Below are positions 3,095 to 64,000 of a stretch of 64,000 nucleotides of DNA, piece by piece. A program made the translations under genes and the position numbers. This stretch comes from an uncultured Candidatus Saccharibacteria bacterium. Lineage in GTDB: Bacteria > Patescibacteriota > UBA1384 > XYA2-FULL-43-10 > 1-14-0-10-43-13. The stretch spans positions 356,933 to 420,932 of the forward strand of contig CAZIYE010000001.1 of NCBI GenBank assembly GCA_964543385.1, written 5' to 3'. The stretch's first letter is position 1, and the number at the start of each line of letters is the position of its first letter. The notes beneath the pieces are model-generated. The model made no database searches and was not told the DNA's origin. It saw nothing but the letters and a program-made list of their open reading frames with translations.

Positions 3095-5056
3095 CTATTT
3101 TCGGGAAAAATAATAGCTCAATATATCCTTAGCTATAGGTGTAGCGATGGCAAAGCTTCCGCCGCCACCATCAACCAAGACTATTACAGCAATCTCTGGA
3201 TTTTCATAAGGAGCATAGCATTCAAACCATGCATGAGTTTTTTTGTTATTTAAAAACTGCGCTGTACCGGTTTTACCAGCTAGAGTTACCGGTAAATCAT
3301 TAAGATTATGAGCCGAACCAGACGGTTCTGTAATAGCCATTCTCATCCCCTTTGCAACTATTTCCAGAATATCCGGTCTAATAAAATTTTCACTCTCTAC
3401 TCTAGGACCAAATTCCTTGATGACTTTGCCATCAGTCGCAACGATCTTTTTTACTAATTGCGGCTGTAACAGCTTACCTTTATTTGCTATCGCAGCAGTC
3501 ACCCTCAACATTTGCAATGGAGTCACTAGAAGGTCACCTTGGCCTATAGAAACATGATAAGTATCACCAATGTACCAAGGCTCTTTCATAACTTTCTTCT
3601 TCCAAGGCGGATTGGGCAATAGGCCACTCGATTCTCCTGGTAGATCAATACCAGATGGCTGTCCAAGGCCAAATTTTTGCCAATATTCGTTAATTTTATC
3701 AATGCCTATACCTTTGACTCTGTCATAGCCACCGCCAATAGCATAAAAGAAAATATTATTAGATTCTGCAATTGCTCGCGTAACATCAGTTACTCCGTGA
3801 TCCCTATTGTCAGGAAAGATATAATCGCCAATTCTGATATCCGGCGGAGTGTCAAAAGACGTATTTTTCGTGATTACTCCCTCTTGAAGACCAGCTGATG
3901 CAAGAATTATCTTAGAAATTGATCCTGGGGGGTACACGCCTTTAATAGCCCTATTAAACATTGGACGGTTTTTATCTTCAATTAATTTCTTGTAATCATC
4001 ATTGGAAATTCCGGTGGCAAATAGATTATTATCATAGTCAGGAAATGAGACTAGTGATAAAACTCCACCGGTGTTAACGTCCATAACAATTGCCGTACCT
4101 CCACTCACCTCTGATCCAATCAAACGTGTAGCATTATCTATCCCTGCTCTGAGTATCTCCCCAACTTTTTGTTGCAAATCGAAATCAAGATTCAGCACTA
4201 TATCGTTTCCAGGAACAGGCTCTTTGTTTTCCTCTTTAACTAAAACTTTGACCGTGTTACCCTTCGAGTCAACCTCTATCTGTTCAACCCCATTTATACC
4301 CTTAAGAAACTTCTCATACTCATATTCCAAACCCGTTTTCCCGGTCTTGTCAGAGGGGTAATAGCCTGGAGTTTTTTTCATATCTTCTTCGGAAACTATC
4401 CCCGTATAGCCAAGTATATGAGCAAGACCATTGCCAATCTGGTACTCGCGGATCGGGGTCTTGGCTACAAAAATGCCAGGTATACCAGCGATATTCTCCT
4501 CTAACAAAAGCGCATCTTCATGAGAAATATTATTTTTGATTTCTACTCTATCGAGAGATAATAAACGATTTCTCTGCTCCCCGATTGTACCATTGCCTTG
4601 AATTGTTATTCTTAATTCATCAACCGATATCCCAGAAATTTCTGAGACTTTCTTATATACATTTTCTCTATCATCTCTATTCTTCGGTAAATCTGATGGA
4701 TAAACAGCTAGCGCAAATGATGGCCTATTCCTTGCCAGCCAATACCCATTTTTATCGCTGATTAGGCCCCTAGTAGATTCAAGAATCCTCGGCCTTATTC
4801 GATTACCCTCCGCAAGAATCTGATTAGCCTCACCTTCGAAAACTTGCAGAACAAATAATTTAAATATTAATACGCAAAAAATAAAAACTATTAAAACTTT
4901 TAAACTAAAATATGAGTGAGATGTAGTCTTGCTCTCAATCTTTCCGATAGGATCTATTGCTGTGTCTCCATAAGAATAGTTAAGATAGCCTTGCTTTTCA
5001 ACACGGCGCTTTCGACGGTCTCCGGCCAATTTTGAAAAGTTACCAAAAATATCCAT
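3095..5056 (-). CDS. mrdA: penicillin-binding protein 2 (elongasome transpeptidase)
   Basis: 653 aa; N-terminal TM anchor, SxxK (GSISK) and KTG (LAGKTGTAQ) motifs; adjacent to mreBCD. Confidence 0.8.
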   Translation of the reverse strand: MDIFGNFSKLAGDRRKRRVEKQGYLNYSYGDTAIDPIGKIESKTTSHSYFSLKVLIVFIFCVLIFKLFVLQVFEGEANQILAEGNRIRPRILESTRGLISDKNGYWLARNRPSFALAVYPSDLPKNRDDRENVYKKVSEISGISVDELRITIQGNGTIGEQRNRLLSLDRVEIKNNISHEDALLLEENIAGIPGIFVAKTPIREYQIGNGLAHILGYTGIVSEEDMKKTPGYYPSDKTGKTGLEYEYEKFLKGINGVEQIEVDSKGNTVKVLVKEENKEPVPGNDIVLNLDFDLQQKVGEILRAGIDNATRLIGSEVSGGTAIVMDVNTGGVLSLVSFPDYDNNLFATGISNDDYKKLIEDKNRPMFNRAIKGVYPPGSISKIILASAGLQEGVITKNTSFDTPPDIRIGDYIFPDNRDHGVTDVTRAIAESNNIFFYAIGGGYDRVKGIGIDKINEYWQKFGLGQPSGIDLPGESSGLLPNPPWKKKVMKEPWYIGDTYHVSIGQGDLLVTPLQMLRVTAAIANKGKLLQPQLVKKIVATDGKVIKEFGPRVESENFIRPDILEIVAKGMRMAITEPSGSAHNLNDLPVTLAGKTGTAQFLNNKKTHAWFECYAPYENPEIAVIVLVDGGGGSFAIATPIAKDILSYYFSRK

Positions 5057-12180: not shown

Positions 12181-12223
12181 AAATAAAACAACTGAGTCGG
12201 TCCGCACAATGGCGAACCGACTC
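12181..12223 (-). terminator. intrinsic terminator of the pyrF-pyrE island operon
   Basis: Minus strand: hairpin gagtcggt-tcgccattgtgcgg-accgactc followed by AGTTGTTTTATTT. Confidence 0.6.
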
Positions 12224-12261
12224 GAGTTTGTCCGTATAGGACTATCACCCCCCTTCGATAT

Positions 12262-13011
12262 TTACGCAGCGTTCATGGCCGCTTCCAGAATATCCCATTC
12301 CAGTTTGGGATGGCGCACAACCTGACCGGCAGCAATCAGCGCTGCGACCGTCGGATCATCCTGATGATATTCTTCTGTCGGCCGGAAAATGTCGCATAGT
12401 ATGGGAATCGGCGGTTTGCCGGGCCGACAAAATTCGTGTGTTTCCGGCCACGCCCGATCAACAGCGCAGATCACATATTGGACGATTCCGCCACCCTCTT
12501 CGATGAGATCTGCCATCTTACCGGTGCTTTTGCCATTATTGAAAACGTCTTCTCCGATGGCATAGCGTTTACCGGGGATAATTGGGTGACGACCTGCTTT
12601 GAACATCGAGGCTTTACGGGTGCTCTCCGTTTCCAGCGCAGTCACTATTTCATCCGGAAACCCGTATTCAATCTGGTCGTAGCCACGGTGCCAGCAGATA
12701 TGCGCGATCGCCTCTGAGAGAGTGAGACCGCCCATTGGTGAACCGTAGATCACCTCAGGAAATCCGTTCGCGTGCAGCAGGCCGAACATCATCTCGGCAA
12801 ACTGTACATTATCCGCCGTCCCTTCGACCATAGCGTAATTGTAGTACGCCGCGCCAACCCAGTGATGGATTTCATCATATTTGGCCGAATACTGTACCAA
12901 CGGCCCAACGATTTTACCATCAGGGGTTGACTTCGATTGATAGGACCCGCGGCGTTGCCGCATAAGCAGCAGCAAGCGATCTTGCTCCTGCTGATTTGGT
13001 GAATATAACAC
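12262..13011 (-). CDS. pyrE: orotate phosphoribosyltransferase-like type I PRTase (high-GC island)
   Basis: PRPP-binding motif GKRYAIGEDVFNNGKSTG aligned with the flexible-loop region (…TESTRKASMFKAG…), as in OPRTases. Likely start is GTG at 13011, preceded by AGGAGG and placed 7 nt after the pyrF TAG stop (translational coupling). The longest ORF in the track (to 13101) overlaps pyrF. Confidence 0.6.
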   Translation of the reverse strand: MLYSPNQQEQDRLLLLMRQRRGSYQSKSTPDGKIVGPLVQYSAKYDEIHHWVGAAYYNYAMVEGTADNVQFAEMMFGLLHANGFPEVIYGSPMGGLTLSEAIAHICWHRGYDQIEYGFPDEIVTALETESTRKASMFKAGRHPIIPGKRYAIGEDVFNNGKSTGKMADLIEEGGGIVQYVICAVDRAWPETHEFCRPGKPPIPILCDIFRPTEEYHQDDPTVAALIAAGQVVRHPKLEWDILEAAMNAA

Positions 13012-13024
13012 GATATCGCCTCCT

Positions 13025-13852
13025 CTAGGCGGCTTCTCTGGCCGCCAGACCTTCTTCGATCTCACGCACAGCGCGCGCCACAACACCAGCGATGTCACCA
13101 TCGGCCGGCTTGGTCAGCGGACGCCCCATTACCAGGAAGTCGGAGCCATCGGCGATTGCGATTGCAGGGGTGACGACCTGCTTCTGGTCCTGAACATCTC
13201 CATCGGCGAAGCGGATGCCCGGCGTCACGACCAGGAAATCCCGACCGCAAGCGGCCTTGATCGCCTTGACATGCTGAGCCGAGGCTACAACACCATCGAG
13301 ACCCGCTTCCTTAGCGAGAAGCGCAAGCTGTACTACTACATACTGCACGGCTGCTTTCTCGTTTTCGAAATTGATCCCGTCGGGGCTCTTGTTCATAAGC
13401 CCGAGCTGAAAGAGGTTCGCGTAGTCGAGGCTCGTCAACACAGTGACGCCGATGACGAGTGGCCGCATTGAGAGGCCAAGCGCCACGGCTTCGGCTTCGG
13501 CGGCTTCACGTGCCGCTTTCATCGCCTCAAGCCCGGAAAGACAGTGCATGTTGATCATGTGCACGCCCAGACGGACAAGAGACTTGACCGCGCCCACCAC
13601 CGTGTTCGGAATGTCGGAAAGCTTACCGTCAAGGAAGACGGCCCCACCGATCTCGATAATGTGGCGAATGACTGAGGAGAACTCGCCGGTCATAATGAGT
13701 TCCAGGCCAACCTTAAAGAACTTGACGCCCTTCGCGGCCATCTGGTCCACCATGGCGATTGCCTTTGCCGGCGAATCGAAGTCCAACGGGATGATGATCA
13801 TCCCTGCTACGCTTGCGCATAGCTGAAGCAACCATTGACGTGTTGTCTTCAC
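13025..13852 (-). CDS. pyrF: orotidine-5'-phosphate decarboxylase (high-GC island)
   Basis: OMPDC signature VFLDGKLSDIPNTV (…D-x-K-x2-D-I-P-N-T…); GTG start with GGAGAAGGAGAAGG SD; strongly G+C-rich compared with flanking genes. Confidence 0.75.
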   Translation of the reverse strand: MKTTRQWLLQLCASVAGMIIIPLDFDSPAKAIAMVDQMAAKGVKFFKVGLELIMTGEFSSVIRHIIEIGGAVFLDGKLSDIPNTVVGAVKSLVRLGVHMINMHCLSGLEAMKAAREAAEAEAVALGLSMRPLVIGVTVLTSLDYANLFQLGLMNKSPDGINFENEKAAVQYVVVQLALLAKEAGLDGVVASAQHVKAIKAACGRDFLVVTPGIRFADGDVQDQKQVVTPAIAIADGSDFLVMGRPLTKPADGDIAGVVARAVREIEEGLAAREAA

Positions 13853-14083: not shown

Positions 14084-14938
14084 TTAACCGACCAGGCTAA
14101 GGATGATATATGCAATTGGCGCTGCATATATCATACTATCGAGCCTGTCGAGTATCCCTCCATGACCGGGGAGAAGGTCACCGGAATCCTTTTTCTTGAA
14201 ATTCCTTTTCAAAAAAGATTCAACCAGGTCTCCGACCTGACCGAGGAGTCCGATAACTGGCCCAAGAAGGACCAGAAACGGGTTATGGAGAGTCATAGCG
14301 AATGCAATTGCAAATGCCAGTGCTGCCACAAAGCCAGCAACCGAACCACCGATGGTCTTCCCCGCGCTGACATCTGGGCAGAGCTTGGCGCTCTTTATCC
14401 GGCTACCGATCAGGTAAGCCGTAATGTCTATTGCCCAAATCGTAACCAGGAATACTAACAGTAGCACAGGCCCCTTGGACAAACTCAATCCCCCGATTTC
14501 AACATGTCCTGGAATAGACCTGATAGCGACTAAGAAGCTTGGCAGCACACTGACATAGACCGCAAACCTGAGAAGGTTCGTAGGTTCTAGGTAGAACTTT
14601 CTATCGAGAAGTTCTGATCCTAGAAAAATGACAGTGAACACAGCAAGCATACAGAGTGGCGCAGACCACAGACTATCAGCCAAAGCAACAGTGCTTAGCA
14701 TGAAAGTGGCGACAGCCATGAAAATCCATGGCAACTTTACAATTCCTTTTACTTCCATCAAGTCACAGTATTCGCTCGCCATGATGGCGATCAAAACAGC
14801 AACAATAATGGAGAATAACAGGTCGTTGCAAAAAAAGATGGCAACAACTGCTAGGGGTATCCCAATCACAGTTACTACCAATCTTTGCAGGAATTTTTTC
14901 ATATCCCTACCCCCGAAACAGCGTGCCACCCTGGTCAC
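14084..14938 (-). CDS. cdsA: phosphatidate cytidylyltransferase
   Basis: CdsA signature …KRNFKKKDSGDLLPGHGGILDRLDSMIY…; probable true start at 14902 (MKKFLQRL…). Confidence 0.85.
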   Translation of the reverse strand: MTRVARCFGGRDMKKFLQRLVVTVIGIPLAVVAIFFCNDLLFSIIVAVLIAIMASEYCDLMEVKGIVKLPWIFMAVATFMLSTVALADSLWSAPLCMLAVFTVIFLGSELLDRKFYLEPTNLLRFAVYVSVLPSFLVAIRSIPGHVEIGGLSLSKGPVLLLVFLVTIWAIDITAYLIGSRIKSAKLCPDVSAGKTIGGSVAGFVAALAFAIAFAMTLHNPFLVLLGPVIGLLGQVGDLVESFLKRNFKKKDSGDLLPGHGGILDRLDSMIYAAPIAYIILSLVG

Positions 14939-26653: not shown

Positions 26654-26779
26654 ATGATACAAAAAAACGGGCACCAACCCGAATAATACTCTTTAACAAT
26701 ATTCAAGATGGTTTAATAATTTAAGTAACTAATACAGACTATAACAAATATCTCTCAAAATGTCAAAACAGAAAAACGT

Positions 26780-36327: not shown

Positions 36328-37239
36328 ATGGCTTCAACACAAGAATTCAGACGCCGAATCAAATCGGTCAATAATACAAAACAAATTACCAAAGCAATGG
36401 AAATGATCGCCTCTATTAAGATGCAAAAGGCAACTCGTTTTGCTGCAATGGCTAGAAGCTACACCCAAAACGCTTGGAATATGCTTTTAAAGCTTGCAAC
36501 AATTGTACTGCCAGAGGCACATCCCCTATTGAATCCAAGAGAAGTAAGGAGAACAGCGGTAGTCTTATTGACTTCAGATCGTGGACTTTGTGGTTCATAT
36601 AATTCGGAAGTACTGAAAAAATTTGTTGCATTCGAAAAGGAACAATGCGCCTGCAATCAAAAAAGTTGCGGTGAATTTGTAGGAAATTGTGATGTAATTA
36701 CTATCGGTAAAAAGGGCGCGGAATTCACCAAAAGATATAAAACAGGCAAACTAATCGCTGAATTCCCCGGCTTCGAAAATAATATTCAGGCAGAAGATGT
36801 TATGCCTATCTCCAAAATGACAAGCGATGAATACCTAGCCGGCAAATATGACCGAGTAGTAGTTATTTACTCTCATTTTGAATCATCACTAAAACAAATA
36901 CCGGTCGTCAAACAGATTTTACCTATATCAAACGACCATATTGATAAACCAGAAATATGGACACAAACCGATGAGGCTGAGACCGAATACAAATTTGAGC
37001 CAAGCCCAGATGACGTTCTAGAAGGAATACTTAAGCAATTTCTGAGAGTTCAAATATACGGCGCAATCCTAGAGGCCAATGCCTCAGAACATTCTGCCCG
37101 TATGGTAGCAATGAAAAATGCTACTGACAGCGCTGGTGATCTGATAGATGAGCTCAAACTGGTATACAACGCTGTCCGCCAAGGCTCAATCACTCGTGAA
37201 ATTGCTGAGATATCTGGCGCAGCGGAAGCAATGAAGTAG
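36328..37239 (+). CDS. atpG: F1 ATP synthase subunit gamma
   Basis: 303 aa; N-terminal …RRRIKSVNNTKQITKAMEMIASIKMQKA… and C-terminal …NATDSAGDLIDELKLVYNAVRQGSITREIAEI…. Confidence 0.85.
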   Translation: MASTQEFRRRIKSVNNTKQITKAMEMIASIKMQKATRFAAMARSYTQNAWNMLLKLATIVLPEAHPLLNPREVRRTAVVLLTSDRGLCGSYNSEVLKKFVAFEKEQCACNQKSCGEFVGNCDVITIGKKGAEFTKRYKTGKLIAEFPGFENNIQAEDVMPISKMTSDEYLAGKYDRVVVIYSHFESSLKQIPVVKQILPISNDHIDKPEIWTQTDEAETEYKFEPSPDDVLEGILKQFLRVQIYGAILEANASEHSARMVAMKNATDSAGDLIDELKLVYNAVRQGSITREIAEISGAAEAMK

Positions 37240-37447
37240 CACATTTAAAAAAACCAGGCCGCCACTTACTTGATTTCGGCGGCAGCCTGGAGATGGGAAG
37301 GCGGGACCATTCCTCGTCTTCATCGGAGACGAACTCGTGTTCGTCGCTACGGCCGAGGGGCCGTGTCTGTTGCCCTTGCTTCGGGCAATCGGCGGTATCC
37401 ATGCAGGAGCACGGACACAGATCATCATCGCGGCCACAGTCGGCCAT
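37190..37447 (-). CDS. hypothetical Cys-rich small protein (GC-rich cassette antisense between atpG and atpD)
   Basis: AAGGGGG SD 8 nt upstream of ATG at 37447; MADCGRDDDLCPCSCMDTADCPKQ… then acidic stretch; ORF reads through the terminator hairpin into antisense atpG, so its true 3' end is uncertain. Could instead be a non-coding RNA. Confidence 0.3.
   Translation of the reverse strand: MADCGRDDDLCPCSCMDTADCPKQGQQTRPLGRSDEHEFVSDEDEEWSRLPISRLPPKSSKWRPGFFKCATSLLPLRQISQQFHE
37246..37290 (-). terminator. intrinsic terminator on minus strand just after atpG stop
   Basis: Minus strand: ccaggctgccgcc-gaaatcaagtaagt-ggcggcctgg followed by TTTTTTTT. Confidence 0.6.
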
Positions 37448-37471
37448 AGTGGTGTCCCCCTTTTCGAAACG

Positions 37472-37500
37472 TTGTCCGGAAACCGGATGGGAGATACAAT
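37472..37500 (+). promoter_or_regulatory. near-consensus sigma70 promoter restarting transcription before atpD (TTGTCC-17-TACAAT)
   Basis: Hexamers and spacing read directly; followed by AAGGAG SD and the atpD ATG at 37536. Confidence 0.5.
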
Positions 37501-37535
37501 AAAATAAATTAGTTAATATGTCAATAAGGAGATAG

Positions 37536-59318: not shown

Positions 59319-60473
59319 CTAATCAACTCTGTCGATTATGCCGCCGCCGACAACTTCATCGCCATGATAGAAGACAGCACTTTGCCCGGGAGTGACGGCT
59401 CTTTGTGATACATCCAGAATGACCTTGAACTTTCCTTCCTGAATCTCATTGATTTGGCAGGTGACCTCTCTGGCCTTATACCGAATTCTAACCTTTAAAT
59501 CTCCATAGTCTGATCTGGGACCAGTCCAATATGTATTTACAATTTCAAACTCTTTTTTATATAGATCTTCATCAGCGCCGACAATTAGCTCATTTTTGCG
59601 TAAATCAAATCCAATAGCATAAAGAGGCTTCTTATTTTCACCTTTATTCATAATTTTTAATTCTTGATTGACATCCTTACGTTGGCCGATTGTGTAGTTA
59701 ACCAACCCGTTATGAATACCTACTGTAAAACCACTCTTGTCAACAATTTTACCGGATTTAAAATATGACTCGTCTAGATGTCTTTTTAGAAATTCACGAT
59801 AATCATTCCCTGCTACAAAACAAATTTCTTGGCTATCTTTTTTCTTATAAGTAAGCAGACCTTCTTTCTCTGCAATTGCCCTAGTGTCTTCCTTGCTCAT
59901 TTCTGAAAGTGGAAATACAACTTTAGAGAGTTTATCCTGACCAAGCTGATACAGAAAATAAGATTGATCCTTAGCTTTATCAAAGCCCTTAGAGAGATGA
60001 TAAAATTCTTCATCATCTTGGGTTATTTTTGCATAATGTCCAGTCGCAAGCTTATCGCATCCAACTTTTTCCGCAAAATCTAAAAGCCATCCAAACTTTA
60101 TTTTTTGATTGCATAGAATGCATGGATTTGGGGTTCTTAGGTTTTTATATTCATCAATAAAATAATCAACGATCTCTTTTTTAAACACCTTCCGAGCGTC
60201 TACTACATAAAACGTTATTCCTAATTGAGTAGCAACTTTGCGTGCATCCATCAAGGCTCGTTCATCGCAGCAAGCATTCTCCGATGTACCGCAAGGATCG
60301 TGCCAAAGCTTCATAAAAAAGCCGACAACATCATATCCTTGTTGTTTTAGAAGCAACGCTGAAACAGAGGAATCAACTCCTCCGGACATGCCCACCGCAA
60401 CTTTTATTTTCGATTTGTCCAATATAATTCCATTCTGATATAGAACTTGATGATACCCTTGATCTGTTACCAA
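59319..60473 (-). CDS. mnmA: tRNA-specific 2-thiouridylase
   Basis: PP-loop …KIKVAVGMSGGVDSSV…; …CNQKIKFGWLLDFA…; TTG start in track, true start possibly slightly downstream. Confidence 0.85.
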   Translation of the reverse strand: MVTDQGYHQVLYQNGIILDKSKIKVAVGMSGGVDSSVSALLLKQQGYDVVGFFMKLWHDPCGTSENACCDERALMDARKVATQLGITFYVVDARKVFKKEIVDYFIDEYKNLRTPNPCILCNQKIKFGWLLDFAEKVGCDKLATGHYAKITQDDEEFYHLSKGFDKAKDQSYFLYQLGQDKLSKVVFPLSEMSKEDTRAIAEKEGLLTYKKKDSQEICFVAGNDYREFLKRHLDESYFKSGKIVDKSGFTVGIHNGLVNYTIGQRKDVNQELKIMNKGENKKPLYAIGFDLRKNELIVGADEDLYKKEFEIVNTYWTGPRSDYGDLKVRIRYKAREVTCQINEIQEGKFKVILDVSQRAVTPGQSAVFYHGDEVVGGGIIDRVD

Positions 60474-60502: not shown

Positions 60503-60528
60503 CGATATCCTAACGGATATCGTTTTTG
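60503..60528 (+). promoter_or_regulatory. leader hairpin plus U-tract (attenuator-like) between the promoter and the SD
   Basis: Perfect 8-bp palindrome cgatatcc-taac-ggatatcg followed by TTTTTGG. Confidence 0.4.
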
Positions 60529-60554
60529 GTAAAACCCCTATTGGAGGATGTTCG

Positions 60555-60722
60555 ATGATTAACCCCTGCCTGCGCGCCCAATTGCGGCGCGACGTCGCCC
60601 GTCGCTGGAAGGCGACCACGGAAGCACTCCGTAACTCTGAATGCCAGAACTGCGTTCTCGCAGACAGCGGATCGTGCGCTCCGGCCAACTGTCCGGGCCA
60701 TCAGGCCCAATCGCGGCACTAG
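60555..60722 (+). CDS. 55-aa Cys-rich peptide (GC-rich cassette)
   Basis: GGAGG SD 7 nt upstream of ATG; MINPCLRAQLRRDVARRWKATTEALRNSECQNCVLADSGSCAPANCPGHQAQSRH (CxxC-x7-C-x4-C at the C-terminus; basic N-terminus). Confidence 0.45.
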   Translation: MINPCLRAQLRRDVARRWKATTEALRNSECQNCVLADSGSCAPANCPGHQAQSRH

Positions 60723-60734
60723 CCGCACTGCGTC

Positions 60735-60770
60735 CCGCCACTCCCCTCAAAGGAGTGGCGGTTCTTTTTA
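60735..60770 (+). terminator. strong intrinsic terminator of the peptide gene, abutting the folD stop
   Basis: ccgccactcc-cctcaaa-ggagtggcgg followed by TTCTTTTTA. Confidence 0.7.
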
Positions 60771-61610
60771 TCCAACAACATTTTTAAACAACATTGCAAT
60801 AGTTACTGGTCCTATCCCACCAGGGACAGGAGTATAATAACGTGACTTTTCGTAAGCTTCTGGATCAATATCGCCAATAAAATCACCATTTTCCTCTGCC
60901 GTTCCAGCGTCGATTAGAACAACGCCGTCTTTGACCATATTTTCTTTTATTAATTTTGGGCTACCCGTAGCAGAAATTATAATGTCAGCATCCTTGATTG
61001 TTTCTACAAGATCATTCTTGCCTTTGTTGACCACCCTTAGATCAGCTTCTTTAAAATCCTCAATCAGACATTTCTGAAGTGGTGAGCCGACAAGAAAACC
61101 AAGACCTACTTGAGCAATCTTAGTTTTTTCATTTATTCTGGCTCCAGAACGTTTTATAGCTTCAAGAATTGCTAAAACGACCGGCGGTTTAAATTTAGAG
61201 TCCAACCCTGCACAGAAGCGAAGACCGTCAATGTCCTTGTCAGGACTGATTTTTGCAATCAGCTTTTCTCGGCTGAAAACTTTAGGAAGAGGAATTTGGA
61301 TCATAATACCATCAGTCTCTGGATCATTATTCAAATAGTTTATAGCTTCAATAATTTCTTCCTCTGAATCCTTCTCACCAAATGTATATAGGCAAAACTG
61401 GATACCAGTTTTCTCAGCCATTTTCTTTTTTAGCTCAACATACTGACGACAAATAGGATTATCTCCAATCAAAAAAACAGCCATTGTTGGCTTTCTCTTC
61501 ATCGTTACTATTTTATTTGCAAGATCACTCAAGATTTCGTCTCGGATCTTTTTACCATCAAAATAATTTTCCATACGAACTATATTAGCAGAAAACACTC
61601 GACTTGTCAT
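60768..61610 (-). CDS. folD: bifunctional methylene-THF dehydrogenase/cyclohydrolase
   Basis: …DGKKIRDEILSDL…; …GDNPICRQYVELKKK…; …VVNKGKNDLVETIKDADIIISATGSPKLI…; probable true start ATG at 61574. Confidence 0.85.
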   Translation of the reverse strand: MTSRVFSANIVRMENYFDGKKIRDEILSDLANKIVTMKRKPTMAVFLIGDNPICRQYVELKKKMAEKTGIQFCLYTFGEKDSEEEIIEAINYLNNDPETDGIMIQIPLPKVFSREKLIAKISPDKDIDGLRFCAGLDSKFKPPVVLAILEAIKRSGARINEKTKIAQVGLGFLVGSPLQKCLIEDFKEADLRVVNKGKNDLVETIKDADIIISATGSPKLIKENMVKDGVVLIDAGTAEENGDFIGDIDPEAYEKSRYYTPVPGGIGPVTIAMLFKNVVG

Positions 61611-61622
61611 CAGTATTAGCAG

Positions 61623-62015
61623 CTATTTATTTTTCTTGCCTTCATAATCAGCGATAGCCTTTTGCAGAGCTTCAGCCGAAAGAATCGAACAGTGATATTT
61701 TTGTTTCGGCAAAATACCAAGAGCTTTATTGATGTCATCTCTAGTCATTTTCTTGACTTCCTTAATAGTCGCTCCTTTAGCAAGCTCTGTCATCATACTC
61801 GAAGCAGCAATAGCTGCTGCACAACCAAGCGTCTTGAACTTAACATCCTCGATATAATCAATGCCGGCCTCATTCTTGGCTACCTTAATATAAACATGCA
61901 TAATATCACCACACTTCATATTTCCAACTTGACCGACACCATCAGCATTCTCAATCTCCCCCACATTGCGTGGATTATAGAAATGATCTAATGCTTCTTT
62001 TGTATACTCTTCCAT
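61623..62015 (-). CDS. iscU: Fe-S cluster scaffold IscU/NifU-like
   Basis: …GNMKCGDIMHVYIKV…, …FKTLGCAAAIAASSMMTE… (three conserved Cys). Confidence 0.8.
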   Translation of the reverse strand: MEEYTKEALDHFYNPRNVGEIENADGVGQVGNMKCGDIMHVYIKVAKNEAGIDYIEDVKFKTLGCAAAIAASSMMTELAKGATIKEVKKMTRDDINKALGILPKQKYHCSILSAEALQKAIADYEGKKNK

Positions 62016-62037: not shown

Positions 62038-63261
62038 CTACTTAAATGGGCTCATCTTTCTTAATTTATCAATAATTCCTGGCAAAACTTCAATAACTTT
62101 ATCAACTTCCTCATCGGTTGTATAACGACTTAGAGAAAATCTGATTGAACCATGTGCCTTCTCTGGCACAATACCCATAGCCGATAAGACATGACTAGGA
62201 TCTAATGATCTTGAAGTACAGGCAGACCCTGATGAAACAGCAATCCCTAAGAAATCCAGATTCAACACGATGGCCTCTCCCTCAGCATTTATAAAACTGA
62301 AATTTACAATATGAGGTGCATGCCTCTCTTTGCTACCGTTGAATATTATATCGGGTATAGATTTTTCCAGAGAAGTAACTAATTTATCTCTAAGCTTTAT
62401 AAGCCTTTTTGCTTCATGGCTAAACTTTAGCTCTGGCAGACCATTATTGATCAAATTATCAGACTCAGATCTCTCTTTAAGGATAAGATCAAGCGCTTTT
62501 GAAAAACCTGCTATTCCAGAAATGTTCTCCGTTCCTGCTCTTTTGCGTAGTTCCTGACTGCCACCAGTGATTTGAGATTTTATTTTAATATTATTTCGAA
62601 GATACAAAGCACCGATCCCCTTCGGTCCATGAAGTTTGTGAGCCGTGAATGTTAGCAAATCGACTTTCAAATACTCAGGTGAAATCTCAAAAAATTCTGC
62701 AGCTTGGACAGCATCAGTATGAAAATAGATCCGACTCTCTTCGTCACGATTTATATTTTCTTTTTCAAGCATGAGACCAATCTCCCTGATAGGAGAAATT
62801 ACGCCGGTCTCATTATTAACATAGATTATTGAAACTAACGTTGTATTGTCTTTTATAGCTTCTCGGACTGAATCAGCTGAAATAATCCCATTATTATCAG
62901 GTTTGATATAAGTAGCTTCGACTTTACCCTCTTTTTCAAGATCTTGTATTGTATGAAGCACAGCATGATGCTCGACCGCACTTGTAATGATATGGGCTTT
63001 CTTTCCACTTTCCACTATTCCCCTGATCGCTAGATTATCTGATTCGGATCCACCAGAAGTAAAAATTATCTCCTCAGGCTCACAGCCGGCAAAGAAGCTA
63101 ACGAATCGGCGCCCATCATCTATTATTTTCCTCGCCTCCTGACCGACAGAATGAATTGATGAAGGATTGCCAAAATATTTCGAATTTACATCGTTTATTG
63201 TCTGAACCACCTCTTTTGCGACTTGAGTCGTCGCAGCGTTGTCTAAATATATTCTATCCAT
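62038..63261 (-). CDS. iscS: cysteine desulfurase IscS/NifS
   Basis: 407 aa; PLP lysine TFTAHKLHGPKGIGALY; active-site …SSGSACTS…. Confidence 0.9.
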   Translation of the reverse strand: MDRIYLDNAATTQVAKEVVQTINDVNSKYFGNPSSIHSVGQEARKIIDDGRRFVSFFAGCEPEEIIFTSGGSESDNLAIRGIVESGKKAHIITSAVEHHAVLHTIQDLEKEGKVEATYIKPDNNGIISADSVREAIKDNTTLVSIIYVNNETGVISPIREIGLMLEKENINRDEESRIYFHTDAVQAAEFFEISPEYLKVDLLTFTAHKLHGPKGIGALYLRNNIKIKSQITGGSQELRKRAGTENISGIAGFSKALDLILKERSESDNLINNGLPELKFSHEAKRLIKLRDKLVTSLEKSIPDIIFNGSKERHAPHIVNFSFINAEGEAIVLNLDFLGIAVSSGSACTSRSLDPSHVLSAMGIVPEKAHGSIRFSLSRYTTDEEVDKVIEVLPGIIDKLRKMSPFK

Positions 63262-63284: not shown

Positions 63285-63494
63285 CTACTCATTAATCTTT
63301 TTAGCTATTTTTCTTAAATCCTGCAAACAGGCTTTGCAGCCAGAACCAGAGATTAAATTTTCAAATTCCTCTTTTGAAACGAGATAAGCAACCGACTTTG
63401 AATACCTATTAACTTCATAAATTTCCCCTGCTTCAACTTCCTTAATAATTTTCGAAAGGTGATTTTGTAATTCGTTTGTAGTAATTTTTTTCAT
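63285..63494 (-). CDS. Phd/YefM-fold small DNA-binding protein with C-terminal CxxC, in IscR-like position upstream of iscS
   Basis: MKKITTNELQNHLSKIIKEVEAGEIYEVNRYSKSVAYLVSKEEFENL… matches the Phd/YefM antitoxin N-domain; tail …SGSGCKACLQDLRK…; no toxin gene follows, and iscS starts 23 nt downstream. Confidence 0.55.
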   Translation of the reverse strand: MKKITTNELQNHLSKIIKEVEAGEIYEVNRYSKSVAYLVSKEEFENLISGSGCKACLQDLRKIAKKINE

Positions 63495-63510
63495 ATATGT
63501 TTATGGTTAT

Positions 63511-63557
63511 GTAATATAACAAGTAATATAACAAGTAATATAACAAGTAATATAACA
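63511..63557. repeat. 12-nt tandem repeat GTAATATAACAA x3.9
   Basis: Read directly; begins 17 nt upstream of the Phd/YefM-like gene start. On the minus strand it is TTGTTATATTAC x4 and contains -35-like TTGTTA hexamers. Confidence 0.9.
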
Positions 63558-63602
63558 TTTAAGGAATTGCCTGTCAATTAGTAAACATAAAACGAAAACG
63601 AG

Positions 63603-63630
63603 CCCTGGTACATCATGTACACAGGGCCCG
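63603..63630 (-). terminator. intrinsic terminator of the truncated high-GC gene
   Basis: Minus strand: ccctgtgtaca-tga-tgtac(c)aggg followed by CTCGTTTTCGTTTTATG. Confidence 0.6.
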
Positions 63631-63661
63631 CTCGGATTTTTGACCTGAGCGCGAACGCCCG

Positions 63662-64000
63662 GGTCATCTCCCACTTCCTTTGTTCAGCTCCACCAGCGGT
63701 CCGATGACCACCTTCTGGAGCATGATCCTACGATTCTCGGGGTTCCGCAGCCTCCAGCTGTCTCCTCCCAGGAATCGGCGCTGCTCAGCAGCAGACAGCC
63801 CCTTCCAGCGTGGATCCTTCGCCTGAGCGGCGATCTCAGCATCGCTGTTTGGGACGCCGCACTCGAGTAGCACCTTGTTCTCGATCGTGTTATAACCACC
63901 GAGAACATCGAAGGTCTTTGCTAAAGTGCAGTTGACTGGCTTGCCGAACCGTTTCCGGCCATAGCCCTGATCAAGCAGAACATTCTCGATCAGTCCGGCC
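63662..64000 (-). CDS. C-terminal part of a high-GC gene of unknown function (continues beyond window end)
   Basis: Open frame from the window edge: …AGLIENVLLDQGYGRKRFGKPVNCTLAKTFDVLGGYNTIENKVLLECGVPNSDAEIAAQAKDPRWKGLSAAEQRRFLGGDSWRLRNPENRRIMLQKVVIGPLVELNKGSGR*; strongly G+C-rich. Confidence 0.4.

Follow-up and report, generated by a model that had tools for sequence, protein, structure and literature searches.

A CxxC-bearing protein of the Phd/YefM antitoxin fold heads the iron-sulfur assembly operon in Berkelbacteria and related Patescibacteria and is a candidate autorepressor of that operon

The antitoxins Phd and YefM and the iron-sulfur (Fe-S) sensing repressors IscR and SufR are the described systems closest to the gene analysed here, which encodes a 69-amino-acid (69-aa) protein and stands directly before iscS, iscU and folD in a 64,000-nt stretch of the contig CAZIYE010000001.1, called the window below. 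YefM-YoeB operators are paired TGTACA palindromes that lie 12 bp apart, centre to centre, over the -10 element (PMC1802561). In the crystal structure of Staphylococcus aureus YefM, two dimers occupy adjacent major grooves at GTAC-N8-GTAC; alpha1-turn-alpha2 reads the bases, the beta2-beta3 wing touches the minor groove, which is AT-rich, both alpha3 helices cross each other at the interface of the dimer, and toxin on the tail alters the DNA affinity allosterically (PMC7544224). IscR and SufR exemplify a common arrangement in which a cluster-sensing repressor is encoded by the first gene of the Fe-S assembly operon that it controls (PMC4618611, PMC6599224, PMC6034842). On sequence evidence, we think it rather probable that the 69-aa protein serves the isc operon (iscS-iscU-folD, perhaps mnmA) as its dedicated autorepressor, being a domesticated transcription factor of the Phd/YefM fold.

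Among proteins of solved structure, the 69-aa protein is nearest to P1 Phd in both sequence and fold. As with Phd, a small dimeric domain that would bind DNA is encoded by the first gene of the operon that it would autoregulate. Unlike P1 Phd-Doc, the small gene is followed by iscS and not by Doc or another toxin. The tail is dissimilar to the Doc-binding tail of Phd, carrying a conserved helix and an invariant CxxC instead, and the gene, passed on vertically, diverges as fast as that of a housekeeping enzyme. The locus shares with YefM of E. coli and S. aureus the 12-bp spacing of units over the promoter and the conservation of residues on alpha1-turn-alpha2 and beta2-beta3. It differs from YefM in the core of the unit (GTTAYAT-type, not TGTACA), in the direct repeats of Berkelbacteria, in lacking a YoeB co-repressor, and in the CxxC tail, which has no counterpart in YefM.

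IscR (Rrf2 family; iscRSUA) is also a Cys-bearing protein encoded by the first gene of an Fe-S assembly operon, and feedback autoregulation is presumed here. The folds are unrelated, the operators differ, and IscR uses three Cys and one His. A first-pass annotation of the window had found the CxxC reminiscent of the Cys ligands of IscR. This stands as an analogy only; the 69-aa protein has two Cys per chain and neither an Rrf2 domain nor a winged helix-turn-helix; judged by its sequence, it is an analogue and not a homologue of IscR. In SufR, a four-Cys site lies within one chain. Nfu-type CxxC proteins and Aft2-type CDC regulators are precedents for a [4Fe-4S] or [2Fe-2S] cluster that bridges two subunits, each contributing two Cys; the 69-aa protein has no sequence or fold relation to them, and the analogy is mechanistic only. 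SufR, from the suf operons of cyanobacteria and mycobacteria, is a further case of an unrelated fold recruited as an Fe-S-responsive repressor that heads an assembly operon (PMC6034842), but its fold differs from the present one and it regulates SUF and not ISC/NIF-like genes.

The small gene and the genes that follow it in the window are these:
63285-63494, minus strand: gene of the 69-aa Phd/YefM-fold protein with a C-terminal CxxC helix, putative isc operon repressor (open reading frame (ORF), hidden Markov model, alignment, AlphaFold2 (AF2))
63327-63338, minus strand: codons C53-K-A-C56 of the CxxC, which open the C-terminal helix predicted by AF2 (residues 51-68) within its first turn
62038-63261, minus strand: iscS/nifS-type cysteine desulfurase (Pfam Aminotran_5, 8e-74; best NCBIfam match NifS/IscS)
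61623-62015, minus strand: iscU/nifU-type Fe-S scaffold (Pfam NifU_N, 5e-45; NCBIfam NifU_clost/IscU)
60768-61610, minus strand: folD, third gene of the conserved cluster (Pfam THF_DHG_CYH and THF_DHG_CYH_C; synteny in most related loci)
59319-60473, minus strand: mnmA, tRNA 2-thiouridylase, a sulfur client of the desulfurase (Pfam tRNA_Me_trans; synteny)

The first-pass annotation had placed this gene in the IscR slot upstream of iscS-iscU-folD, and its first-gene position was kept in all 77 assessable loci. These comprised 20 GTDB species, 52 metagenome loci and five loci of more divergent subfamilies, and span Berkelbacteria, Howlettbacteria, candidate division WS5 and other Patescibacteria. 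In each of the 77, the homologue heads the operon and is followed on the same strand by a cysteine desulfurase and an IscU/NifU scaffold. The GTDB scan (one genome per species) gave the order homologue, iscS, iscU on the same strand in 20 of 20 loci, most of which continue with folD and mnmA. The metagenome scan returned 54 loci of a subfamily 37-54% identical to the window protein; all 52 that were long enough have iscS downstream, then iscU. The still more divergent subfamilies begin with the homologue in five of five loci, followed by an Aminotran_5 desulfurase and a NifU_N scaffold. The next gene is iscS itself in 72 of the 77. A single small non-toxin gene, MazG/PRA-PH-like or for a 23S-rRNA-intervening-sequence (IVS) protein, intervenes in three (WS5, Howlettbacteria, Berkelbacteria L005), and a gap of 150-220 nt, not searched for short ORFs, precedes iscS in the remaining two (L007, L055).

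The small gene of the window ends at 63285 and the iscS ATG lies at 63261, leaving the same-strand gap of 23 nt that had been noted before. The promoter and terminator scan of the window found no promoter-like or terminator-like site in between. Stop and start codons of the small gene and iscS overlap in an estimated 29 of 64 non-redundant loci, with the iscS start inferred from tblastn coordinates. At the other end of the operon, a GC-rich gap of 294 nt separates mnmA from folD, and co-transcription of mnmA is uncertain. The identity of the small protein to the window copy was correlated with that of IscS (r = 0.78; means 53% and 52%), indicating vertical co-inheritance under purifying selection and not a mobile toxin-antitoxin gene.

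Several loci carry additional genes in or beside the operon. In WS5 and Howlettbacteria loci, a gene for a MazG/PRA-PH-like nucleoside triphosphate pyrophosphohydrolase lies between the CxxC gene and the desulfurase gene (L084 3719-4084, L085 3518-3865). Another lineage has SfLAP-like and rhodanese genes as insertions between desulfurase and scaffold (L088 4936-6302). Genes for 23S-rRNA-IVS (four-helix-bundle) proteins adjoin the operon at L005 (4232-4582) and L021 (2741-3103); at L005 the gene sits between the small gene and iscS, and such genes appear mobile in these genomes. About 80 nt upstream of the true start in L008 and L019 (each about 3920-4000), a short stretch, by its look a decayed partial duplication, resembles the 5' end of the gene (ATGAAA.A.ATTAATGT.AATGA..., MK.INVNEL...).

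The 69-aa protein (MKKITTNELQNHLSKIIKEVEAGEIYEVNRYSKSVAYLVSKEEFENLISGSGCKACLQDLRKIAKKINE) matched Pfam PF02604 PhdYeFM_antitox over residues 1-49 with 38.9 bits (gathering cut-off 29.8) and NCBIfam TIGR01552 phd_fam with 35 bits (cut-off 20.8); its Pfam and NCBIfam matches are to Phd/YefM only. The AF2 monomer model, built from the family alignment, had a predicted local distance difference test score (pLDDT) of 81.6. Its fold order is beta1-alpha1-alpha2-beta2-beta3-alpha3 (alpha3 at residues 41-49) followed by the C-terminal helix at 51-68, and the CxxC comes directly after alpha3. Foldseek against solved structures gave P1 Phd as the best match, including the operator-DNA complexes 4zm0 and 4zm2 (33-37% identity, root mean square deviation 1.4-2.2 over the N-domain), and the top matches P1 Phd, VapB46-N, YefM and RelB all had probabilities of 0.9-1.0. 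P1 Phd is also the closest solved relative by sequence (E = 2e-5), with the similarity restricted to residues 1-47; by this comparison the tail past residue 47 is new relative to Phd. The tail reads ...SGSGCKACLQD..., and C53 and C56 are the two Cys of the entire protein. The Phd/YefM N-domain proposed by the first-pass annotation was thus confirmed by both family models and by the fold, and the GCKAC of the tail proved to hold two Cys that are invariant across the entire family. Going by its sequence, the 69-aa protein belongs to the Phd/YefM fold family, yet by the defining criteria of an antitoxin it is not a functional one.

Among 5.8 billion proteins searched, 53 clusters of about 69 residues matched at 61-100% identity; their named sources are Candidatus Berkelbacteria. 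In the alignment of these clusters (A1), C53 and C56 are invariant, and so are K2, L9, Q10, S14, V20, G23, R30, Y31, S32, A36, D59 and R61. An exhaustive profile search of 1.84 billion representatives gave only 84 matches at E <= 1e-3, and the distant ones keep RYS...CxxC. The sole invariant columns in the alignment of 21 divergent sequences (A2; 26-52% identity) are R, Y, C and C, and a third alignment set (A4) agrees; no invariant ligand residue besides C53 and C56 was found across the subfamilies in A2 and A4. The elements known from YefM to contact DNA carry near-invariant residues here, T6, N7, L9, Q10, S14 and K15 on the one hand and R30, Y31 and S32 on the other. Profile searches with the divergent sets added 382 and 238 clusters from Berkelbacteria, Howlettbacteria, candidate division WS5 and "Patescibacteria group", which the databases label as antitoxin, prevent-host-death protein or hypothetical protein. 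Pfam and NCBIfam hold no model for a CxxC subfamily of Phd/YefM, and the literature searched gave no description of one. Literature searches also returned nothing relevant that ties YefM/Phd or prevent-host-death proteins to iscS, cysteine desulfurase, Berkelbacteria or IscR.

The region upstream of the small gene contains the following features:
63572-63577, minus strand: -35 hexamer TTGACA (promoter scan)
63549-63557, minus strand: extended -10 element TGtTATATT, within repeat unit 1 (promoter scan)
63511-63558, minus strand: four 12-bp units, putative operator (Tandem Repeats Finder, position weight matrix (PWM)); units 63558-63547, 63546-63535, 63534-63523 and 63522-63511
63588-63629, minus strand: imperfect hairpin GCCCTGTGTACAT-G-ATGTACCAGGGC and then TCGTTTTCGTTTT, the probable terminator of the GC-rich gene upstream (read from sequence)

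The -35 hexamer, a 17-nt spacer and the extended -10 element agree with the consensus at 11 of 12 positions, which makes this the best site of the region in the promoter scan. Read on the coding strand, the array consists of ATGTTATATTAC and then three copies of TTGTTATATTAC. The four perfect 12-nt copies of the first-pass annotation were largely right: the array is real and three copies are perfect, but the first does not begin with TTG and is off at its first base (47 of 48 nt). Tandem Repeats Finder reported 63511-63557 (47 nt, period 12, 3.9 copies, 100% matches, score 94), the highest-scoring tandem repeat of the window, and the chance expectation in the window for a run of 35 period-12 matches is about 1.5e-14. 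The array ends 16 nt upstream of the ATG of the small gene. The predicted transcription start, at about 63542, falls within unit 2, and units 2-4 span the start and the leader. Each unit contains the near-palindrome GTTATATTAC, so that direct and inverted arrangements would be nearly equivalent for a symmetric dimer. A PWM built from the other loci scored 11.7 at +12, +24 and +36 in the window array.

The hairpin and T-run of the probable upstream terminator are kept upstream of the 93%-identical homologue in L079/L080, and the consensus terminator scan did not flag the hairpin. Such a terminator would shield the operon from transcription entering from upstream. With Rfam at gathering thresholds, only tRNAs were found in the window, and no Rfam match of any kind lies in the leader or in a GC-rich island. 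A short-read assembly made independently from this strain (L001 position 1, Logan SRR12261224_57323) breaks inside the array, and the copy number given here is that of the contig CAZIYE010000001.1 alone.

The promoter form TTGAC[AT]-N14-17-TGnTAnnnT precedes the homologue in 17 of 20 GTDB species loci as well as in the window. In 10 of 18 loci, a leave-one-out PWM of the 12-mer over the -10 element (ATGTTAYMTTAS) picked up another copy on the same strand, displaced by exactly +12 or -12 nt; the background rate was 7e-4 per position. The divergent subfamily has the consensus TTGACA-N3-5-GTTATATA-NN-ATGTTATAT(T/A), with one unit in the spacer and the other over the -10 element. We defined a strict pair as two GTTATAT units with at most one mismatch each, 12 nt apart and within 260 nt upstream of the gene. 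Strict pairs were present at 40 of 75 loci, and a relaxed pair at 50 of 66 non-redundant loci. Elsewhere in about 0.9 Mb, both strands, five strict pairs occurred. All five are intragenic chance matches, as is the single further copy of the operator 10-mer in the window (24439), and on these grounds the search for further regulon members through operator copies was rejected. The 48 nt after the -35 element of 38 non-redundant loci, with the window excluded, had a self-similarity of 0.48 at lag 12, compared with 0.26-0.38 at other lags and 0.29-0.33 in a control region.

The units are GTTAYAT-type and lie over the spacer and -10 element or over the -10/+1 region. Howlettbacteria-type and other divergent loci have the GTTAY cores as inverted repeats over the -10 element, for example TGTTACCCTA-N5-7-TAGGGTAACA and AGTTATACTA-N4-TAGTATAACT. 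No informative co-variation of protein residues with operator variants was found; the GTTAY core and the N-E-L/RYS residues are kept everywhere, which amounts to co-conservation. Among 69 non-redundant promoters, two phased units were counted in 56, one in 11, three in one and four in the window only. The operator-like character first ascribed to the repeats was therefore upheld in the form of two phased GTTAYAT-type units across the family, but four near-perfect copies are a feature of this strain. Two units stand at the corresponding place in the three closest relatives, whose proteins are 93%, 93% and 80% identical, and from this comparison the window array is a recent expansion from two to four copies by slippage or duplication. 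The leaders of L002-L021 (such as L011, L012, L014 and L017) measure 80-170 nt from promoter to start and contain short low-complexity repeats (ATAAGC, CACAGAA, TAAAGT, AATAAC and others), which differ from lineage to lineage.

The upstream neighbours of the operon vary (TatD, EamA, a CsoR-like repressor, GIY-YIG, an rRNA-IVS protein and unknowns). Apart from the small gene, no DNA-binding gene is conserved in the neighbourhood of the related loci. The statement of the first-pass annotation that no toxin gene follows held more widely: no toxin family was found among the neighbouring ORFs of related loci, and neither a toxin family nor Rrf2 among the 20 small ORFs of the window. A tblastn search of the window with IscR, CymR, Doc and YoeB queries gave no match. 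The window searches cover about 10% of the genome of about 671 kb.

In the mechanism that we propose, each 12-bp unit of the GTTAYAT type would be bound by one dimer of the 69-aa protein, with the dimers in adjacent major grooves, like YefM on GTAC-N8-GTAC. The units overlap the spacer and -10 element or the -10/+1 region, where bound protein would block RNA polymerase. The tail would have been freed from toxin binding, with a short helix that opens with the invariant CxxC in place of the toxin-binding tail, and it probably senses Fe-S, sulfur or redox status. Four Cys, from the two tails of a dimer or from neighbouring dimers, would most likely ligate a bridging Fe-S cluster supplied by IscS/IscU. 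The two chains of the dimer may be close near the CxxC, because the CxxC directly follows alpha3 in the model and the alpha3 helices cross in YefM (PMC7544224). The cluster would then act as co-repressor in the stead of the toxin, and better binding by the holo form would give negative feedback on the Fe-S supply. With its two extra units, this strain would have additional binding sites downstream of the start. The co-option of an antitoxin-fold protein as regulator of an Fe-S operon, as first hypothesized, is supported by the linkage at 77 of 77 loci, the divergence in step with IscS and the invariant CxxC.

Several points weigh against the proposed autorepressor. We infer the DNA binding of the 69-aa protein, the nature of its cofactor and the direction of regulation for an uncultivated organism. 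With two Cys per chain, a cluster needs an inter-subunit site, and the AF2 model is a monomer. Eleven of the 69 non-redundant promoters have a single unit by our own criterion, and L005, L010, L018 and L084 lack a canonical -35/-10 arrangement in the stretch examined. The conservation of the motif is in part merely that of an extended -10 element, and the TGT-TAnnnT form of this element also occurs outside isc, at the tRNA-Val/tRNA-Leu promoter of the window (26737-26771, minus strand), which reads TTGACA-N14-TGTTATAGT. The search for a distant toxin or another isc regulator was limited to 64 kb of the genome. The overlap with iscS estimated from tblastn coordinates also fits a stoichiometric partner of IscS rather than a regulator.

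A broader proposal is possible, though tentative. The protein would represent an unrecognised class of Fe-S-sensing transcription factor on the Phd/YefM fold, in which a cluster that bridges CxxC tails, within a dimer or between neighbouring dimers on the 12-bp sites, is the co-repressor, and would be the isc regulator of Berkelbacteria, Howlettbacteria, WS5 and related Patescibacteria. We speculate, with similar reserve, that such co-repression by a cluster would be "conditional cooperativity" without a toxin, in the role that IscR or SufR has elsewhere. If true, a component of toxin-antitoxin systems has been domesticated into a housekeeping regulator by exchange of its toxin-binding tail for a cysteine sensor, which bears on the re-use of antitoxin allostery, in which ordering of the tail raises DNA affinity. 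It would also identify the regulator of Fe-S assembly that is so far missing from several candidate-phyla lineages, where regulation is almost unknown, and several hundred entries labelled "antitoxin" or "prevent-host-death protein" would need correction. The system is small (69 aa, an operator of 24-48 bp) and suited to direct testing in vitro and in E. coli.

The alternative that survives best keeps the isc autorepressor and takes the CxxC for a structural or regulatory Zn site that bridges the dimer, or for a thiol switch (disulfide or persulfide) that responds to oxidants or to sulfane sulfur made by IscS. The presence of two Cys per chain, the absence of another invariant ligand across the subfamilies and the position of the CxxC in the first turn of a helix would suit it. 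Zn-binding antitoxins are known (MqsA), and so are two-Cys sensors of persulfide or redox state. On the other side, clusters bridged by a CxxC pair from each of two subunits are known from Nfu-type proteins. With a gene linked exclusively to an Fe-S assembly operon, the simplest feedback signal would be cluster occupancy, as for IscR and SufR (PMC4618611, PMC6034842). We regard a CxxC of this other kind as rather unlikely.

It is improbable, in our view, that the protein is instead an accessory factor of Fe-S or sulfur trafficking, with the Phd fold as a dimer scaffold, the CxxC tail taking a persulfide or nascent cluster or docking on IscS/IscU, and the repeats bound by another factor. Its gene lies in the operon, and the frequent overlap with the iscS start, as estimated from coordinates, would point to translational coupling. 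The CxxC is at a helix N-terminus in the AF2 model, where redox- or sulfur-active CxxC motifs are located, and rhodanese and other sulfur genes are inserted in the operon in some lineages. However, the conserved N-domain residues are those of the DNA-contacting elements of YefM, a repeated motif with YefM-like 12-bp phasing lies on the gene's own promoter in most loci, and no other conserved DNA-binding gene is nearby. The two roles are also compatible, as IscS or IscU could be the co-repressor.

The repeats could also be nothing but promoter architecture or slippage, that is, a reiterated extended -10 element or sites of another factor (for instance of the Fur family), unrelated to the small protein. 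Every unit does contain the extended -10-like TGnTAnnnT, the four-copy array is strain-specific, and another promoter of the window has TGTTATAGT. The second unit, however, mostly lies 3-5 nt past the -35 element or downstream of the -10 element and is unable to act as the -10 of that promoter. Independent lineages repeat the phasing of exactly 12 nt, the rest of the 0.9 Mb is essentially free of such pairs, and the units, as read from the sequences, are not 7-1-7 palindromes of the Fur/PerR type. Taken with these points, this explanation is very improbable. An orphan or decaying antitoxin, the alternative of the first-pass annotation, in which the remnant of a Phd/YefM module stands before iscS by chance, its toxin lost or elsewhere and the repeats its old autoregulatory operator, has on its side the antitoxin names of the family in Pfam, NCBIfam and the sequence databases and a toxin check of its own genome that spans 64 kb, but it is essentially excluded by the place of the gene upstream of iscS-iscU at all 77 loci in several lineages, its divergence at the rate of IscS (r = 0.78), a tail that is conserved with an invariant CxxC and not variable, and the absence of toxin families among the neighbours and in the window.

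The window has a GC content of 39% and contains GC-rich islands of 54-57% at 12192-13835, 14217-14475, 37209-37508, 60503-60831 and 63589-63971. The largest island spans two ORFs that look acquired (12262-13101 and 13025-13852, minus strand). At 63664-64000 on the minus strand, a GC-rich gene is cut off by the end of the window, which contains its 3' end. Its product has no Pfam or NCBIfam match and shares 36% identity with the C-terminus of a membrane protein of 375 aa, encoded just upstream of the homologous gene in L003. The GC-rich upstream flank was considered as an assembly chimera, and this was rejected on the homologous gene at the same place in L003 and the terminator hairpin shared with L079/L080. 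A 55-aa GC-rich ORF with five Cys (MINPCLRAQLRRDVARRWKATTEALRNSECQNCVLADSGSCAPANCPGHQAQSRH) lies antisense between folD and mnmA (60555-60722, plus strand). It has no family match, the protein collection lacks a gene call for it, and it was seen only in the same strain (L001). It has a GGAGG 6 nt before its ATG and is followed by a strong hairpin terminator at 60735-60761 on the plus strand.

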